Assembly (NCBI GenBank): GCA_030688545.1
Contig: JAUYHT010000002.1
Location: 300,001-332,000 of the forward strand
DNA length: 32,000 nt
Direction of reading: 5' to 3'
DNA from: Candidatus Iainarchaeum sp.
GTDB taxonomy: Archaea; Iainarchaeota; Iainarchaeia; Iainarchaeales; VGJJ01
Positions 16,372 to 19,492 of the stretch are shown here, one piece after another. How positions within the stretch are numbered: the stretch's first letter is position 1; each line of letters opens with the position of its first letter. Below the pieces are notes generated by a model. That model did not search any database. It had not been told where the DNA came from and worked only from the letters and a program-made list of their open reading frames with translations. Both the position numbers and the translations under genes were made by a program.

Positions 16372-16803
16372 TTATTTGAATGGATTAATAGCCACAATTC
16401 CATCCATTTTTTGGAAATCCTTGGTATTTTCAGTGTAAATATGGACGATTCCATTTTCTTTCATCGTTTGGGCGATTAAAGCATCCCAGGGTGAGTTCGA
16501 CTGCCCATTTATGAATGCCTTTTCAACCGTATGAGTGGTATAATTTATTTTTTTACAGGAAGGCAGGCGATTGATTTGAGAAATAATTCTTTGGACCAAT
16601 TCAGGAGGGAAAGGATGTTCCAATTTATATCGCACCACCCGGTTAAACTCGGCCAGGATTTGATTACTCACTACAAGATGACGTCTTCCTTCTATACAAT
16701 CGTTCATTAATGTTTTGGCTATTTCATGCCTTTCCCCATCTTTTGTATTATAGGCATATACTAATATGTTGGTATCAAGGAAAAAAGGATCAGTCGCGGT
16801 CAT
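16372..16803 (-). CDS. vapC: PIN-domain ribonuclease toxin VapC
   Basis: FFLDTNILVYAY near the N-terminus, then AEF, WDALIA and YTENTKDF acidic/PIN motifs. I chose the ATG at 16803 (MTATDPFFLDTN), which overlaps the vapB stop by 14 nt. An upstream ATG at 16872 would overlap vapB by 83 nt. Confidence 0.85.
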   Translation of the reverse strand: MTATDPFFLDTNILVYAYNTKDGERHEIAKTLMNDCIEGRRHLVVSNQILAEFNRVVRYKLEHPFPPELVQRIISQINRLPSCKKINYTTHTVEKAFINGQSNSPWDALIAQTMKENGIVHIYTENTKDFQKMDGIVAINPFK

Positions 16804-17050
16804 ACAATTCGTCTCGGGATTTGTACAGTATCTTACCCCCGTTAAATCCCTTGTTAAGCGTTTCGATGGCATTCCGCCGAACTTCCTCTGACTCCTTCTT
16901 CTTCACCCACAAATCCATAGCTTCAGAAATAGCCTTGCCTAAAACACCTTTACTTTCACCCAAAAATTTCTTTACCGTCTTACGAAAACGCTGCTCGCTT
17001 TTCGTCGAAACGTTGGCCGTAATGGTAGCTGTGTCAGACATGCTATACAT
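16790..17050 (-). CDS. vapB: VapB-type antitoxin (probable RHH/CopG-like)
   Basis: 86-aa ORF directly upstream of and overlapping vapC. An ATTTAAAT box (17066-17073) lies upstream. An alternative ATG lies at 17041. Confidence 0.6.
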   Translation of the reverse strand: MYSMSDTATITANVSTKSEQRFRKTVKKFLGESKGVLGKAISEAMDLWVKKKESEEVRRNAIETLNKGFNGGKILYKSRDELYDRD

Positions 17051-17201
17051 TTAGATTATTGGATTATTTAAATGGATGTGGGGTGGGCTAAAATCATTCT
17101 TCCACGTCGTTTTAAAGCATTCCCAGGCCCACATTATCTTAATCCGGAACCAATGGCGTTCTGGGGTTCCGGCATGTAAAAATGGGCGAGTTTCCCCATA
17201 A

Positions 17202-17275
17202 GCCCACGTAGCTCAGTCTGGAAGAGCACCAGTTTCGTAAACTGGGGGCCGAGGGTTCAAATCCCTCCGTGGGCT
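17202..17275 (+). tRNA. tRNA-Thr (anticodon CGU)
   Basis: GCCCACG TA GCTC AGTCTGGAA GAGC A CCAGT TTCGTAA ACTGG GGGCC GAGGG TTCAAAT CCCTC CGTGGGC T. All four stems are fully paired, with T33, A37, GG in the D loop and a TTCAAAT T loop. A TAAAAAT box is centred 22 nt upstream. Confidence 0.9.
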
Positions 17276-17280
17276 TGTCT

Positions 17281-18306
17281 ATGGAAAAACGTGTTTTCGT
17301 AGGTAATCGGCTGGATTCGATAGCTTTCTTCAATGATGTGAAAAATGGCGGAAATTTTCATAGCTTTAAAGAATTGTGCACCATTCTAAGAATCCCGCAT
17401 GGTAGATTCTGGTTTTTGCAAACAGGAAGACGAAGCCTTACTATCACTCAATTCAAAAAATTATTTTCATATTTACCCCCAGAATTACAAAAGAGATACT
17501 ATAAAATAATCGATATCCGCCCACGGAATTGGGGTCAAATAATTGGCGGAAAAATCGCTTATGAGAAAATAAAAGATGCATTTGAAAAGGGACGGACAAA
17601 GGCCTGTGAAGCCAGGTCAAGAAAAGCGGAGTCAAAATTTAATATTTTGCAAACGTTGAACAGCGATATATGCGAATATTTAGGTGCCTTCGCAGGAGAT
17701 GGTTTCACTAACGACAACAATTCAAATTATACGATCGGATTTTCTGGAGATAGTCGTTATGATTTTGATTATTATCTGAACACAATAATTCCGATATCTG
17801 AAAAGTACTTCAATTTAACCCATCACCATACTCGTATTGATAAAAATTCCATGTGGATCAGTTTCTATTCAAAGGCATTATTCAAAATGCTAACCGAAAG
17901 ATTTGATATGCCAAAAGGAGAAAAATGGGACAAAGTCCTTGTTCCGAAAGAAATTATGAGGAGTAATATTGAACATAAAACAGCTTTTTTACGTGGTACT
18001 TTTGATAGTGATGGATGTGTTTCATTCGATAGAAGACCCATATACAAAGAGCCCTATATGCGAGTGGATATCACTATGGTAAATACGCCTATCCTAAAAC
18101 AACTTAATCAAATACTAACAGAATTAGGTATTAATTCCAGTGTACTCGGGAACGGAAAACATCTTCAAATTTGTTCAAAAGAGAATGTCCGAAAATTCTT
18201 TGAAATTGTTGGAACCTCTAATAAGCGCCATCGTACTAAGGTTCGACAAAAATACAAAAATTTCGAGGAATGGAATCCCGCTAGGTTTTCATACCCAGTT
18301 TCGTAA
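17281..18306 (+). CDS. Double-motif LAGLIDADG homing endonuclease with an N-terminal extension of about 130 aa
   Basis: Two LAGLIDADG motifs, YLGAFAGDGFT and FLRGTFDSDGCVS. The ATG at 17281 is 6 nt after the tRNA-Thr discriminator base (the ORF-track start at 17269 is a GTG inside the tRNA). The TAA stop (18304-18306) is T36-A37-A38 of a duplicated anticodon loop. Very AT-rich: 17 G+C in nt 17461-17520. Confidence 0.85.
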   Translation: MEKRVFVGNRLDSIAFFNDVKNGGNFHSFKELCTILRIPHGRFWFLQTGRRSLTITQFKKLFSYLPPELQKRYYKIIDIRPRNWGQIIGGKIAYEKIKDAFEKGRTKACEARSRKAESKFNILQTLNSDICEYLGAFAGDGFTNDNNSNYTIGFSGDSRYDFDYYLNTIIPISEKYFNLTHHHTRIDKNSMWISFYSKALFKMLTERFDMPKGEKWDKVLVPKEIMRSNIEHKTAFLRGTFDSDGCVSFDRRPIYKEPYMRVDITMVNTPILKQLNQILTELGINSSVLGNGKHLQICSKENVRKFFEIVGTSNKRHRTKVRQKYKNFEEWNPARFSYPVS

Positions 18307-18342
18307 ACTGGGGGTCGAGGGTTCAAATCCCTCCGAAGGCTT
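18295..18342 (+). pseudogene. Partial tRNA-Thr(CGU) copy (positions 27-73 plus 1 trailing nt, no 5' acceptor or D arm)
   Basis: 45/48 identical to 17229-17276. Differences are GGGCC>GGGTC and the 3' acceptor CGTGGGC>CGAAGGC. No matching 5' half lies upstream. Confidence 0.85.
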
Positions 18343-19492
18343 ACTTCTTCCAGAAAAGGAGGACTGTTATTCCCAGCAGTGTTATTCCTGAAATGAATAT
18401 TGCAGTGGGCAATCCGACCATATCTGAAATTAGGACCCATGCTATGACAAGCACAGCTGAAAACACATACACGGCCATGCTGTCAATCGAAAGAATAGTT
18501 GCCCTCTTGTCAGAGGGAGAATGACGATTGATGTATCCGCTTACTAATGGCAAATATGCACCGGCCACAAAAAAAAGAAGAAAAAGGGAAAGAAGCCCAT
18601 ACACGGAAGGGAAAATCCCCATGAGTAGATAGGATAGCGCAAACAAAATAGGCAAGAGGAAAAGCATGCGCCAACCCCCCAGCATTTTTTCAAACCTTAC
18701 TGAAAACTTAGACCCCACTGCGGCAGAAAAACGGAAAAGCGCAAAAAATATGCCAAAAAGAAGGATGTCCACACCCACACTTTGTATGTAAGGTTGAATC
18801 AAGTTTCTAAAAAAGATAAAATAAAAAGAAATAATCAAGGAATTATAGACCACAATCCAGCGAACCGCAGGGGTTTTCCAGACAAAAGAAAGAGAATCCA
18901 GGAAGTGCGCGACAAACGAGGTATTTTTCTTTTTGATGGGAGGCTCCTCAAATAGAACGGAAGCAACAAGTGCGATGCAAAAACCAAAAAAGGCAAGAAC
19001 GAAAGGATAGCGAATATTGAGCGTGTAAACGTATGCCCCCACCAACGCAGTCAGACCCAAGGAGACCTGCGCAAAAAAAAGGGCGTTGCCTTGAATTTTC
19101 TTGAACTCATTTTCTCGCTTCAAGGCTTTAAGGGAATCATACAACAGCGCGGAGGAGGCCCCCGAATCAAAGGCACCCCAAAGACCTGTCAAAAAGCTTG
19201 CGACGACGAGCGCTTCAAATGAAGGAGCCCAAATAATTAGGAGGCCACCGACCACCAAAAAAGTGGACCCAATCACCATCGACTTCTTTCTCCCAAATTT
19301 ATCAGCAAAAATTCCGGTTGGGATTTCAAAAACAACCCATGTCAAATAAAACACAGTTGACGAGATAAAGACCGTCTCCAAAAGCGTGTACCCCAAATCA
19401 AAATAGAAGAGCGTGAATATGGGGGCCACAAAGAGAGAGAAACGAAAGACAAAGTAAATGTAATACTTCGAGATATTGGATTCGAGTGACAT
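18341..19492 (-). CDS. Major facilitator superfamily (MFS) transporter
   Basis: 383 aa with about 10-12 hydrophobic helices and the loop 2-3 signature GIFADKFGRKKSM. Its stop codon overlaps the end of the tRNA fragment by 2 nt. More AT-rich than the core genes. Confidence 0.85.
   Translation of the reverse strand: MSLESNISKYYIYFVFRFSLFVAPIFTLFYFDLGYTLLETVFISSTVFYLTWVVFEIPTGIFADKFGRKKSMVIGSTFLVVGGLLIIWAPSFEALVVASFLTGLWGAFDSGASSALLYDSLKALKRENEFKKIQGNALFFAQVSLGLTALVGAYVYTLNIRYPFVLAFFGFCIALVASVLFEEPPIKKKNTSFVAHFLDSLSFVWKTPAVRWIVVYNSLIISFYFIFFRNLIQPYIQSVGVDILLFGIFFALFRFSAAVGSKFSVRFEKMLGGWRMLFLLPILFALSYLLMGIFPSVYGLLSLFLLFFVAGAYLPLVSGYINRHSPSDKRATILSIDSMAVYVFSAVLVIAWVLISDMVGLPTAIFISGITLLGITVLLFWKK

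Follow-up and report, generated by a model that had tools for sequence, protein, structure and literature searches.

A LAGLIDADG endonuclease gene of a Diapherotrites genome is probably part of a cassette that brings a replacement tRNA into a resident tRNA gene

Known homing endonucleases spare their hosts by hiding in introns or inteins. I-DmoI and I-Tsp061I have archaeal hosts and a conserved stable-RNA gene as their target, and their genes lie within spliceable bulge-helix-bulge introns of rRNA, where the insertion is harmless. The atp6 element of Allomyces is reportedly a mobile endonuclease ORF that brings along a replacement gene segment. Free-standing endonuclease genes have also been described in connection with 'fractured genes' (Dassa et al. 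2009, PMC2677866). According to the excerpted account of phage T4 SegB, this enzyme is a free-standing GIY-YIG homing endonuclease in a tRNA gene cluster; the site that it recognizes contains a conserved motif of tRNAs, the T-psi-C stem-loop, and it drives its gene's inheritance together with that of the neighboring tRNA genes, displacing the tRNA region of the recipient (PMC2330249). Integrase elements of tRNA genes, such as PYG1 of Pyrococcus yayanosii (PMC9897764), place an intact tRNA and a repeat of its 3' part around AT-richer foreign DNA.

We analyzed a locus from a Diapherotrites/Iainarchaeia MAG, a DPANN archaeon, within a stretch of 32,000 nucleotides referred to below as the window (Table 1). 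A LAGLIDADG gene is the sole ORF of a 1.1-kb insert, and the neighbors of the insert encode GlyRS, a PIN protein, an 86-aa ORF, an MFS transporter and MsrB. No integrase or recombinase is found in the insert or among the neighboring genes. A separate assembly (L170) matches the locus at 100% identity across 4496 nt; the arrangement is therefore no artefact of the assembly of one contig. As with SegB, a free-standing endonuclease gene is found among tRNA genes. SegB, however, is a GIY-YIG enzyme of a phage multi-tRNA cluster, whereas the archaeal element, known from sequence alone, is of the LAGLIDADG type, resides in a cellular genome and would form a one-tRNA cassette. The excerpted SegB account mentions no stranded halves of a disrupted resident tRNA at the flanks, whereas relatives of the archaeal element have them (PMC2330249). 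The locus likewise resembles the integrase elements in having an intact tRNA and a 3' repeat on either side of AT-richer DNA, but it lacks an integrase, the insert is only 1.1 kb long, the repeat is not an exact att core, and relatives display 5' fragments and a lost tRNA middle. A search of the literature on LAGLIDADG or homing endonucleases in connection with tRNA genes, DPANN, archaea and split tRNAs returned no description of this arrangement.

Table 1. Features of the locus, in positions of the window
Feature	Position	Strand	Remarks
TATA-like box TTTTAAAG	17110..17117	+	within conserved motif CGTTTTAAAGCATTCCC
Conserved leader element GGAACCAATGGCGTTCTGGGGTTCC	17146..17170	+	TATA box upstream, tRNA downstream
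Intact tRNA-Thr(CGU)	17202..17275	+	acceptor GCCCACG/CGTGGGC; CCA not encoded
Spacer TGTCT, 5 nt	17276..17280	+	from discriminator base to ATG; read directly
Free-standing LAGLIDADG homing-endonuclease gene, 341 aa	17281..18306	+	ATG 17281, TAA 18304-18306
3' fragment of tRNA-Thr(CGU) gene	18295..18343	+	positions 27-73 plus one base; 3' acceptor CGAAGGC

The intact tRNA scores 70.3 bits (E 8e-15) with Infernal under the full Rfam model, and ARAGORN types it as tRNA-Thr with anticodon CGT. An Rfam E-value scan of the region reports the intact tRNA only; the fragment reaches 18.6 bits under the tmRNA model, well under the threshold. The endonuclease ATG begins 6 nt after the discriminator base (T17275). 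The TATA-like box is invariant in an alignment of the window, L001-L005, L009 and the endonuclease-less L010, and from the archaeal promoter consensus it is likely the promoter of a transcription unit comprising the tRNA and the endonuclease gene. It is separated from the tRNA start by 84 nt in the window and by 27 nt in L010. The leader element between them is conserved in sequence in seven endonuclease-bearing loci and missing in L010; RNAalifold predicts a 7-bp stem in it, without compensatory changes or covariation. At the other end of the unit, the 3' end of the endonuclease mRNA folds only into the anticodon and T hairpins (z = -0.77). We take the intact tRNA for the functional one, coupled to the endonuclease gene as a cassette tRNA.

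The fragment behind the gene is identical to tRNA positions 27-73 at 45 of 48 nucleotides (18295-18342), or at 46 of 49 when the next T is included (18295-18343 against 17228-17276). The fragment departs from the tRNA by C>T in its variable loop and by TG>AA on the 3' side of the acceptor (CGTGGGC in the tRNA, CGAAGGC in the fragment). The TAA stop of the endonuclease gene corresponds to positions 36-38 of the anticodon loop of the fragment. The T-arm motif GGTTCRANTCC occurs three times in the window against 0.21 expected, and the three sites belong to two tRNAs and the fragment. Recomputation upholds the observation of an earlier note on this DNA, which had described the intact tRNA-Thr(CGU), a start codon too close to it for a promoter of its own, a stop codon inside a second anticodon loop, a duplicate with the same coordinates and identity, and the lack of an integrase. 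We interpret the fragment as the stranded 3' part of a resident tRNA gene of a GCCTTCG-type allele. A matching 5' half, GCCTTCG followed by a D-arm, was not found anywhere in the window: GCCTTCG occurs at eight sites (4.6 expected), none of them followed by a D-arm. One of these sites, inside the ORF at 17686, was tried as the 5' acceptor; it codes for part of LAGLIDADG motif 1, and the equivalent complement is impossible in L006, so we read it as a coincidence. Nor is a 5' leftover recognizable upstream of the tRNA in the window or in its close relatives. The sequence GCCGAAATAGT after the TATA box is faintly tRNA-like and was considered as a 5' relic; since its distance to the TATA box is only 9 nt and it shows no pairing with the 3' fragments, we make no claim for it.

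Equivalents of the fragment follow the stop codon in L003, L006, L013, L097 and L110, and degenerate traces are seen in L004 and L098. In L003 and L006 the fragment begins at the stop codon, and its acceptor strand is unlike that of the adjoining intact tRNA; the L006 fragment is closer to an L005-type allele than to its own neighboring tRNA. The preservation of tRNA-like fragments in loci whose endonucleases are only ~50% identical suggests repeated re-invasion, gene conversion or a function of the fragment.

Both sides of a second, disrupted tRNA are preserved in four loci (L013, L097, L098 and L110), where its pieces enclose the TATA box, the tRNA-Thr(CGU) and the endonuclease gene. In three of these loci the acceptor strand of the 5' piece pairs with that of the 3' piece, at 7/7 positions in L013 and L110 and at 6/7 in L097. 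The L013 pieces, GCCCTTGTAGCTCAGTGGAT on the 5' side and ...GAGAGTTCAAATCTCTCCAAGGGCT on the 3' side, have acceptors matching the allele of the endonuclease-less locus L016. In L097, L098 and L110 the 5' piece consists of positions 1-16, and the 3' piece lies at the stop codon or within about 10 nt of it, comprising the T-arm and acceptor in L097 and L110, and only part of the T-stem with the acceptor in L098. Positions about 17-48, which hold the 3' strand of the D-stem and the anticodon arm, are missing from the flanking pieces of L013, L097 and L110; splicing of these pieces therefore could not yield a tRNA.

The placement behind tRNA-Thr(CGU) is a constant feature of close homologues. All nine of them (44-60% identity) have the ATG 1-6 nt after this tRNA, a distance that leaves no room for a separate promoter, and eight of the nine loci lie between GlyRS and MsrB. 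The earlier note had proposed checking homologues for bracketing by tRNA-Thr sequence, and fragments do recur in the subfamily. Sites with the tRNA-Thr(CGU) after GlyRS and no endonuclease gene are found in L010, L012, L014 and L016, so that the insert is present or absent at a homologous site among related genomes. Insert-free sites, which the earlier note had proposed to look for, are thereby found in part: four loci carry the tRNA without the endonuclease gene, and it is the L013 pieces that match one of their alleles, that of L016. L010 falls within the endonuclease-bearing clade of the GlyRS tree. Decaying forms are also present, as expected of a selfish endonuclease gene that passes through invasion, degeneration and loss: the start codon is missing from L009 and the C-terminus from L005, L013 carries a frameshift, L015 has been truncated, and from L010 the gene is gone altogether. 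The linked tRNAs tend to share the T-stem GAGGG/CCCTC, a tendency too weak to be decisive; apart from it, tRNA-Thr(CGU) alleles with and without the endonuclease gene show no consistent difference that could point to the target or to immunity.

Neighbor-joining trees of the endonuclease and GlyRS are largely congruent in the clade of the window, and inheritance there looks mostly vertical. The element would accordingly not be a recent arrival everywhere. Horizontal spread in this clade is hinted at only by L004/L005, where identity is 84% for the endonuclease against 80% for GlyRS (dS 0.87 against 1.32), and by L007, where it is 44-54% against about 35%.

Among the more distant relatives (22-40% identity), 63 of 74 non-redundant metagenomic loci carry a tRNA no farther than 60 nt from an end of the ORF, and only 4 of the loci with complete flanks have none. 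The tRNAs, confirmed with Infernal, are mostly Thr or Ser: Thr(GGU/CGU/UGU), Ser(CGA/GCU/UGA/GGA) and Leu(CAA). Judging by these loci, association with tRNA genes is a property of a large protein family beyond one locus; the family comprises 120 cluster representatives at E<=1e-30 and about 1200 at E<=1e-10. In other subfamilies the endonuclease gene lies upstream of the tRNA or convergent to it, behind a TATA box of its own. Loci L104 and L122 are mirror images, with a 5' piece, a TATA box and the endonuclease gene followed by an intact tRNA-Thr(GGU). Stranded 5' pieces are present in the Ser and Leu subfamilies too, and some cassette tRNAs (L095/L096, L098, L110) have short introns.

The 341-aa protein matches LAGLIDADG_3 in Pfam at 5.9e-13 (49.3 bits against a curated cut-off of 22.5) and carries two motifs in one chain, LGAFAGDG and LRGTFDSDG, as in the monomeric type. 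G139-D140-G141 and D242/D244-G245 are invariant in 10 homologues, both motif aspartates included. The AF2 model has a pLDDT of 88, and a Foldseek search with it returned I-DmoI, I-Tsp061I, I-AniI and PI-SceI at probability 1.00, with TM scores (target) up to 0.74. The best matches are I-DmoI, I-Tsp061I and an intein endonuclease domain, with TM (target) of about 0.7; bI3 maturase and WhiA are also among the structural matches. The predicted structure has the alpha-beta-beta-alpha-beta-beta-alpha double-domain fold with a DNA-binding saddle. It shares the monomeric two-motif fold with I-DmoI (TM about 0.72 on target) and I-Tsp061I, and differs from them in an extra N-terminal domain, a helical extension of ~125 aa before the I-DmoI-like core that has no Pfam match. 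An hmmsearch of PDB sequences found no match to the endonuclease, and the assignment to known LAGLIDADG structures therefore rests on fold and Pfam. Comparison of L004 and L005 gives a dN/dS of 0.11, indicating purifying selection. With invariant catalytic aspartates, the modeled I-DmoI-like core and this selection, the endonuclease looks active.

GC amounts to 35.5% in the endonuclease ORF (GC3 31.6%); the window as a whole has 50.3% and the GlyRS gene 51.6%. The insert had been described as far more AT-rich than its flanks; the difference itself stands, but it is only partly specific, since the neighboring PIN and MFS genes are also low in GC (38% and 43%). GC3 of the endonuclease gene is 32-41% in every lineage, where GlyRS has 45-62%, which places it 13-30 points under the host and gives it a foreign composition.

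We consider that 17110-18343 is probably a free-standing homing-endonuclease gene of a tRNA-specialized LAGLIDADG lineage, forming with a replacement tRNA a cassette inserted in a resident tRNA gene. The mobile unit would consist of the promoter, the complete tRNA-Thr(CGU) and the endonuclease gene. The enzyme would cut a cassette-free resident gene for tRNA-Thr(CGU); judging by the retained fragments, the break would lie somewhere from about position 20 to about position 27, on the 3' strand of the D-stem. Taken solely from the ends of the flanking fragments, the target may extend around tRNA positions about 12-34. Repair of the break would copy the cassette in, with the conserved 5' and 3' ends of the tRNA serving as homology arms. 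The resident gene would thereby be destroyed and its leftover ends stranded beside the cassette, while the cassette tRNA would assume its function. Of these leftovers the window shows only the one on the 3' side (18295-18343) in recognizable form; its acceptor would derive from another allele, of the GCCTTCG type. The endonuclease ORF would have run into this leftover and taken its U36-A37-A38 as a stop codon.

Expression of the endonuclease would most likely be driven by the tRNA promoter, as the earlier note had proposed, with a tRNase Z cut after the discriminator base freeing an mRNA with a 5-nt leader. The 1-6 nt spacing and the single TATA box fit this route, under which shutting off the endonuclease would mean shutting off the tRNA as well. 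It cannot hold for the family as a whole, given the subfamilies with an upstream or convergent gene and its own TATA box. Counting against the cassette are the mostly vertical inheritance in this clade, the missing 5' leftover in the window and its close relatives, the persistence of fragments beside endonucleases only ~50% identical, and the likeness of the intact tRNA and the fragment, which are one base apart across positions 27 to 66; a target in this interval would leave the immunity of the intact copy unexplained, or else gene conversion would have homogenized both copies.

The cassette with a replacement tRNA had been one of two origins proposed in the earlier note, and it is the reading best supported by the tRNA-Thr(CGU) at all close homologues, the empty sites and the four two-sided loci. 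The endonuclease gene might instead move alone, with the tRNA outside the mobile unit: one-sided or illegitimate repair of a double-strand break would have placed it directly behind the resident tRNA and duplicated the 3' two-thirds of that tRNA, and the three differences in the fragment would be later mutations in a neutral copy. The fragment is indeed 94% identical to the neighboring tRNA, and homing in phage T4 with limited exon homology is said to produce flanking duplications. Although the L004 and L005 endonucleases are 84% alike, their tRNAs differ in the D-arms and anticodon stems, which suggests that the 5' two-thirds of the tRNA need not accompany the endonuclease gene when it moves. 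We nevertheless find it unlikely that the gene travels alone: in L013, L097, L098 and L110 the fragments flank a unit with the whole tRNA and the TATA box, those of L013, L097 and L110 pair mutually and are not derived from the enclosed tRNA, and the L006 fragment resembles an L005-type allele, unlike its own neighbor. The congruence of the endonuclease and host trees, the purifying selection as strong as on GlyRS (dN/dS 0.11) and the gene order and spacing kept across the clade also agree with a domesticated LAGLIDADG protein that is no longer selfish. Passed on vertically and associated with tRNA-Thr(CGU), it would serve the host, for example as a regulator that binds DNA or RNA or as a maturase-like factor, and the fragment next to it would be an old scar. 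LAGLIDADG domains with other roles have precedents in two of the structural matches, bI3 maturase and WhiA. Domestication is still rather improbable in view of the two invariant catalytic aspartates and a GC3 far under the host value in every lineage; moreover, several lineages have lost, truncated or frameshifted the gene while keeping the tRNA, and relatives lie beside various tRNAs and in both orientations, an indication that the targeting acts on DNA.

Split tRNAs occur in DPANN relatives (Nanoarchaeum), and the fragment could itself be functional as RNA: it might form the 3' half of a split tRNA, with the 5' half elsewhere, or the 3' exon of a tRNA whose giant intron holds the endonuclease gene. 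Pairing in the T-arm is kept in all fragments, a compensated stem is present in L003 (GTGGG/CCCAT), and the L003 and L006 fragments start near the canonical 37/38 position. ARAGORN even joins the L013 pieces as one tRNA with a 1128-nt intron, but this call crosses a run of N, and its intron-aware search found no intron-bearing tRNA in the window, L003 or L006. We give a functional RNA very little credence: GCCCACG and CGAAGGC are mismatched at 2/7 positions in the window, the 32 kb lack a GCCTTCG with a D-arm behind it, and the pieces of L013, L097 and L110 are without the 3' strand of the D-stem and the anticodon arm. The mismatch and the missing tRNA middle in relatives likewise lead us to discard a giant or bulge-helix-bulge intron, and bear out the earlier view that the duplicate is not a 3' exon. 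The other proposed origin was Campbell- or integrase-type integration of a circle carrying a tRNA 3' segment (attP), with the intact tRNA as attL and the 48-nt fragment as attR. Elements that integrate into tRNA genes classically leave an intact tRNA accompanied by a direct repeat of its 3' part, with examples in Thermococcaceae (PMC9897764), but no integrase or recombinase lies in or adjoining the 1.1-kb insert. A displaced host 3' part should also pair with the host 5' part, whereas the acceptors here mismatch, and a single crossover makes neither the upstream 5' fragments ending in the D-loop nor the deleted tRNA middle seen in relatives. Integration of a circle is accordingly disfavored and has only a slight chance of being correct.

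With the cassette as the preferred reading, the harmlessness that I-DmoI and I-Tsp061I gain from a spliceable intron would come, for a gene without an intron, from a complete spare tRNA and tRNA end-processing. To the extent that the atp6 element and the fractured genes are described in the accounts drawn on here, they too involve insertion in an essential gene whose function is kept through sequence supplied or arranged by the element, while a native part remains as a pseudogene fragment. They concern protein-coding genes, whereas the element in the window would rescue a tRNA and appears to carry a whole gene with its promoter. In the synthetic drives ClvR and HomeR a nuclease destroys an essential wild-type gene, and a linked cleavage-resistant copy rescues the carriers. 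The logic of the element would be the same, but these drives are engineered with Cas9 in diploid animals, and here a prokaryote is concerned and the logic is deduced from anatomy only. A more tentative generalization, which we put forward as possible though not favored, is that an archaeal LAGLIDADG radiation acts as a natural home-and-rescue drive, destroying an essential single-copy tRNA gene and installing a cleavage-resistant copy. Both genes would use the same promoter, with release by tRNase Z where the endonuclease gene is downstream or by RNase P where it is upstream, so that tRNA processing would stand in place of the splicing used by intron- and intein-borne endonucleases. The short introns of the cassette tRNAs in L095/L096, L098 and L110 could be an immunity device. 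Such a device would tie these elements to a long-standing proposal, in which the tRNA genes of archaea acquired introns or became split as a defense against mobile elements.

If the cassette reading is true, entry into a tRNA gene with a spare tRNA, and expression through tRNA end-processing, would be a third route to harmless insertion beside introns and inteins. It would also define a sizeable uncharacterized group of archaeal LAGLIDADG proteins with tRNA genes as predicted targets; tRNA genes are among the most conserved sequences in biology, which makes the group interesting to those who engineer meganucleases. A class of orphan tRNA fragments from DPANN genomes, possibly miscalled by annotation pipelines, would be accounted for. 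With these loci it can be asked in a concrete system whether selfish endonucleases were the driving force behind introns and split genes among archaeal tRNAs.

Some relatives of the endonuclease gene in the window have pieces of a disrupted tRNA gene on both sides, and these pieces bear directly on the duplicated tRNA sequence described in an earlier note. Every particular of the anatomy given there (the tRNA-Thr gene, the ORF behind it, the stop codon inside a second tRNA copy, the 45/48 identity of that copy and its mismatched acceptor strand) was confirmed by Rfam, ARAGORN, Pfam or the sequence itself. The acceptor stem of the intact tRNA, GCCCACG/CGTGGGC, forms all pairs, and CCA is not encoded. 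A 5-nt spacer, TGTCT, precedes the ATG of the ORF, whose TAA stop falls within the second copy. Copy and intact gene agree at 46 of 49 positions when the next T is counted. They differ by one C>T change in the variable loop and by TG>AA in the 3' acceptor strand, which leaves that strand unable to pair with the 5' strand upstream. Chance alone would give 0.21 occurrences of the T-arm motif per window, and an independent second assembly is identical across 4.5 kb. The convergent MFS gene overlaps the final bases of the fragment (18341-18343), so that two stop codons bound the fragment exactly, with zero spacer.

Features of the window and of related loci (L handles; coordinates refer to the sequence named)
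Feature	Location	Strand	Remarks
PIN-domain gene and small 86-aa ORF	window 16372-17050	-	overlapping, small ORF upstream
Conserved non-coding leader block	window 17103-17170		CGTTTTAAAGCATTCCC (TATA-like), ~25 nt later GGAACCWAYGG...TGGGGTTC
TATA-like box	window 17110-17117	+	conserved in window clade; 84 nt upstream of tRNA in window
tRNA-Thr, anticodon CGU	window 17202-17275	+	Rfam 70.3 bits; type by ARAGORN
LAGLIDADG ORF, 341 codons	window 17281-18306	+	Pfam LAGLIDADG_3 above curated cut-off
Partial second tRNA copy, tRNA positions 27-73	window 18295-18342	+	45/48 identity to intact gene
MFS transporter gene	window 18341-19492	-	convergent
5' tRNA piece	L013, first in order		GCCCTTGTAGCTCAGTGGAT
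Interval	L013, after 5' piece		~35 nt, partly masked
tRNA-Thr(CGU)	L013, after masked interval		complete-looking, different acceptor (…CTGCGGC)
Endonuclease gene	L013, after tRNA-Thr(CGU)		frameshifted
3' tRNA piece	L013, after endonuclease gene		…GGGGTCGAGAGTTCAAATCTCTCCAAGGGCT, then T-run
Variable loop, T-arm and acceptor fragment	L007 1795-1825	-	…GGTCGGGAGTTCAAATCTCCCCATGGGCT and T-run
tRNA of 118 nt	L096 3600-3717		Infernal, 38 bits
tRNA-Thr(CGU) with short anticodon-arm insertion/intron	L095 2367-2452
tRNA-Thr(CGU), likewise	L096 2367-2451
tRNA-Thr(CGU), likewise	L098 554-639
tRNA-Thr(CGU), likewise	L110 2346-2432

No integrase is present at the window locus, where the neighbouring genes encode GlyRS, MsrB, an MFS transporter, a PIN protein and a small ORF. 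The claim of an AT-rich insert holds for the ORF (35.5% GC vs 50.3% for the window), but less so for the contrast with its flanks, as the PIN (38%) and MFS (43%) genes also lie below the average. The PIN gene and the 86-aa ORF (45% GC) are likely a toxin-antitoxin pair; the insertion separates GlyRS from the tRNA promoter, and relatives do not have it at their syntenic loci. In general, the region from GlyRS to MsrB is variable.

The two pieces flanking the L013 cassette have fully complementary acceptor strands (GCCCTTG/CAAGGGC), and the same acceptor is found in the tRNA of the endonuclease-less locus L016. Three further loci, L097, L098 and L110, share flanking homology (L097 with each of the other two), and their endonucleases are 52-54% identical to one another. 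All three display the same order: a 5' piece (positions 1-16), a TATA box ~24 nt ahead of a complete tRNA-Thr(CGU), the endonuclease gene and, at its stop codon or within ~10 nt, a 3' piece. The latter comprises the T-arm and acceptor in L097 and L110, and part of the T-stem with the acceptor only in L098; acceptor pairing between the pieces is 7/7 in L110 and 6/7 in L097. The combined pieces lack positions ~17-48 in these loci and ~21-43 in L013. Lacking the tRNA middle, they cannot be exons, which together with the acceptor mismatch in the window upholds the earlier view that the duplicate is not a 3' exon. Judged by sequence, the flanking pieces are opposite ends of one tRNA gene, the middle of which has given way to a cassette that comprises promoter, tRNA and endonuclease gene.

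Among closer relatives, the TAA stop in L003 and L006 is directly followed by ATCCG at the position of the 3' strand of the anticodon stem, and then by the variable loop, a perfectly paired T-arm and the 3' acceptor strand; in L004 a degenerate trace is left. Each fragment has an acceptor strand (CGAAGGC, CGGAGGC, TATGGGC) unlike that of the adjacent intact tRNA, and the L006 fragment is closer to an L005-type allele than to its own neighbour. The L007 fragment has the opposite orientation, and the cassette tRNA lies ~57 nt downstream of it. In the mirror-image loci L104 and L122, a 5' piece, a TATA box and the endonuclease gene precede an intact tRNA-Thr(GGU); the L122 ORF crosses the 5' half of this tRNA and stops at U36-A37-A38, the stop position of the window ORF. 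Stranded 5' pieces are present in the Ser and Leu subfamilies too.

In many relatives the endonuclease ORF extends into an intact tRNA gene behind it, where conserved bases of the tRNA provide the stop codon: TAG from U8-A9-G10 (L115, L135, L136, L159), or TAA from N36-A37-A38 of the anticodon loop (L122/L123, L153/L157), where base 36 is in general the last anticodon base and is U in the Thr tRNAs of L122/L123. Transcripts of this kind would lose the stop codon when cut by RNase P. The usual T-loop is TTCRAWT, with a near-universal T54 that is G in the TGCAAHT loops (H = A, T or C) of the cassette tRNAs of L097, L098, L110 and L095/L096; this loop also occurs in the stranded fragments of L097 and L110.

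Two origins had been proposed for the arrangement. Campbell-style integration of a small circle is disfavoured: a recombinase is absent, and neither 5' fragments nor a deleted middle are expected from it. In Archaea, integrase-bearing elements are well known to leave tRNA fragments (PMC9897764). Best supported is the other proposal, invasion of a resident tRNA gene by a cassette with a replacement tRNA, with pieces on both sides in L013, L097, L098 and L110. A free-standing LAGLIDADG endonuclease would target the cognate resident tRNA gene, a donor cassette with a complete tRNA would template repair of the break, and the ends of the resident gene would be left stranded. The longest retained pieces reach position 20 from the 5' end (L013) and begin at position 27 on the 3' side (window), which would place the break in or near the 3' strand of the D-stem. 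No part of a tRNA is more conserved than its 5' and T-arm/acceptor ends, and we infer that these ends could act as portable homology arms. The window has a recognisable leftover on the 3' side only; over positions 27-66 it is nearly identical with the intact copy, which points either to a recent event or to gene conversion. Persistence of tRNA-like fragments across lineages with only ~50%-identical endonucleases may reflect repeated re-invasion, gene conversion or function. Short anticodon-arm introns of some distant cassette tRNAs could be relevant to their escape from cleavage. Such insertions occupy varied positions and were not seen in endonuclease-free alleles among the compared loci.

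In all nine non-redundant close-homologue loci inspected (the window, L001-L007 and L009) the endonuclease gene begins directly after tRNA-Thr(CGU), with the ATG 1-6 nt past the discriminator, and eight share the GlyRS...MsrB neighbourhood. GlyRS of L007, located downstream of the endonuclease gene, shares only ~35% identity with the others. When one genome per species was scanned with GlyRS as anchor, related Iainarchaeia with empty sites came to light: L010, L012, L014 and L016 have the tRNA after GlyRS and no endonuclease gene. L010 is nested within the endonuclease-bearing clade of the neighbour-joining GlyRS tree, implying gene loss. Other copies are decaying: L009 lacks a start codon, L013 is frameshifted, L015 is truncated past motif 2 and L005 is without its C-terminal tail. 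Purifying selection acts on the intact copies (dN/dS 0.11 for L004/L005, equal to that of GlyRS). The endonuclease tree is largely congruent with the GlyRS tree, so inheritance in the window clade looks mainly vertical. There are hints of transfer in L007 (endonuclease identity 44-54%, GlyRS ~35%) and L004/L005 (84% against 80%; dS 0.87 vs 1.32). In every lineage endonuclease GC3 (32-41%) is far under that of GlyRS (45-62%).

Proximity to tRNA genes extends across the family. A tRNA lies within 60 nt of an ORF end in 63 of the 74 non-redundant relatives from metagenomes (22-57% identity), compared to 19% for other ORFs in these loci; only four have complete flanks yet no tRNA. The commonest partners, confirmed by Infernal, are Thr(GGU) at the ORF end on the opposite (13 loci) or same strand (9), Ser(CGA) (13) and Ser(GCU) (6) at the ORF end on the same strand, and Thr(CGU) at the ORF start on the same strand (7). 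As the tRNA may precede the ORF, follow it or converge with it, what the loci have in common is DNA-level adjacency, not a shared transcript. The 118-nt tRNA of L096, downstream of the endonuclease gene and just upstream of tRNA-Thr(GGU), is presumably intron-bearing.

The proposed expression from the tRNA promoter with release by tRNase Z fits the anatomy: the spacer is 1-6 nt, and distant cassettes have a single TATA box. Cutting by tRNase Z after the discriminator, an established step of archaeal tRNA processing, is required because CCA is not encoded. In the window clade, the conserved TATA-like box is followed by a conserved leader. Expression of this kind would not extend to cassettes with the endonuclease gene upstream of the tRNA, which have a separate TATA box ~22 nt before the ATG. 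The leader block lies upstream of the tRNA in seven endonuclease-bearing loci (the window, L001-L005 and L009), displays no covariation and is conserved at the sequence level only. In the endonuclease-less L010 the TATA box is 27 nt from the tRNA and the ~62-nt block is absent.

The protein contains two LAGLIDADG motifs, LGAFAGDG and LRGTFDSDG, whose aspartates are invariant in the alignment of homologues. Diapherotrites/Iainarchaeia MAGs and metagenomes are the source of ten homologues (45-100% identity). Among 1.84 billion cluster representatives, a profile search detected 120 relatives at E<=1e-30, a number that rises to 1204 at E<=1e-10; there is a long form (~330 aa) and a core-only form (~210 aa). 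In the AlphaFold2 model (pLDDT 88), a helical region of ~125 residues at the N-terminus, which matches nothing in Pfam, precedes a double LAGLIDADG core. Searching the PDB by sequence gave no hit; by structure, the core comes closest to I-DmoI, I-Tsp061I and endonuclease domains of inteins (TM on target ~0.7).

The archaeal rRNA-intron enzymes I-DmoI and I-Tsp061I are thus the closest structural relatives, and the closest functional analogue is SegB of phage T4. SegB is a free-standing GIY-YIG endonuclease within a tRNA cluster, with a site that includes the T-psi-C motif, and it drives its own inheritance along with that of neighbouring tRNA genes (PMC2330249). The full-text literature searched contains no description of archaeal LAGLIDADG cassettes with flanking tRNA pieces, which does not in itself prove novelty. 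We classify the window element as a homing-endonuclease gene of the free-standing kind, linked to a replacement copy of its putative target gene.
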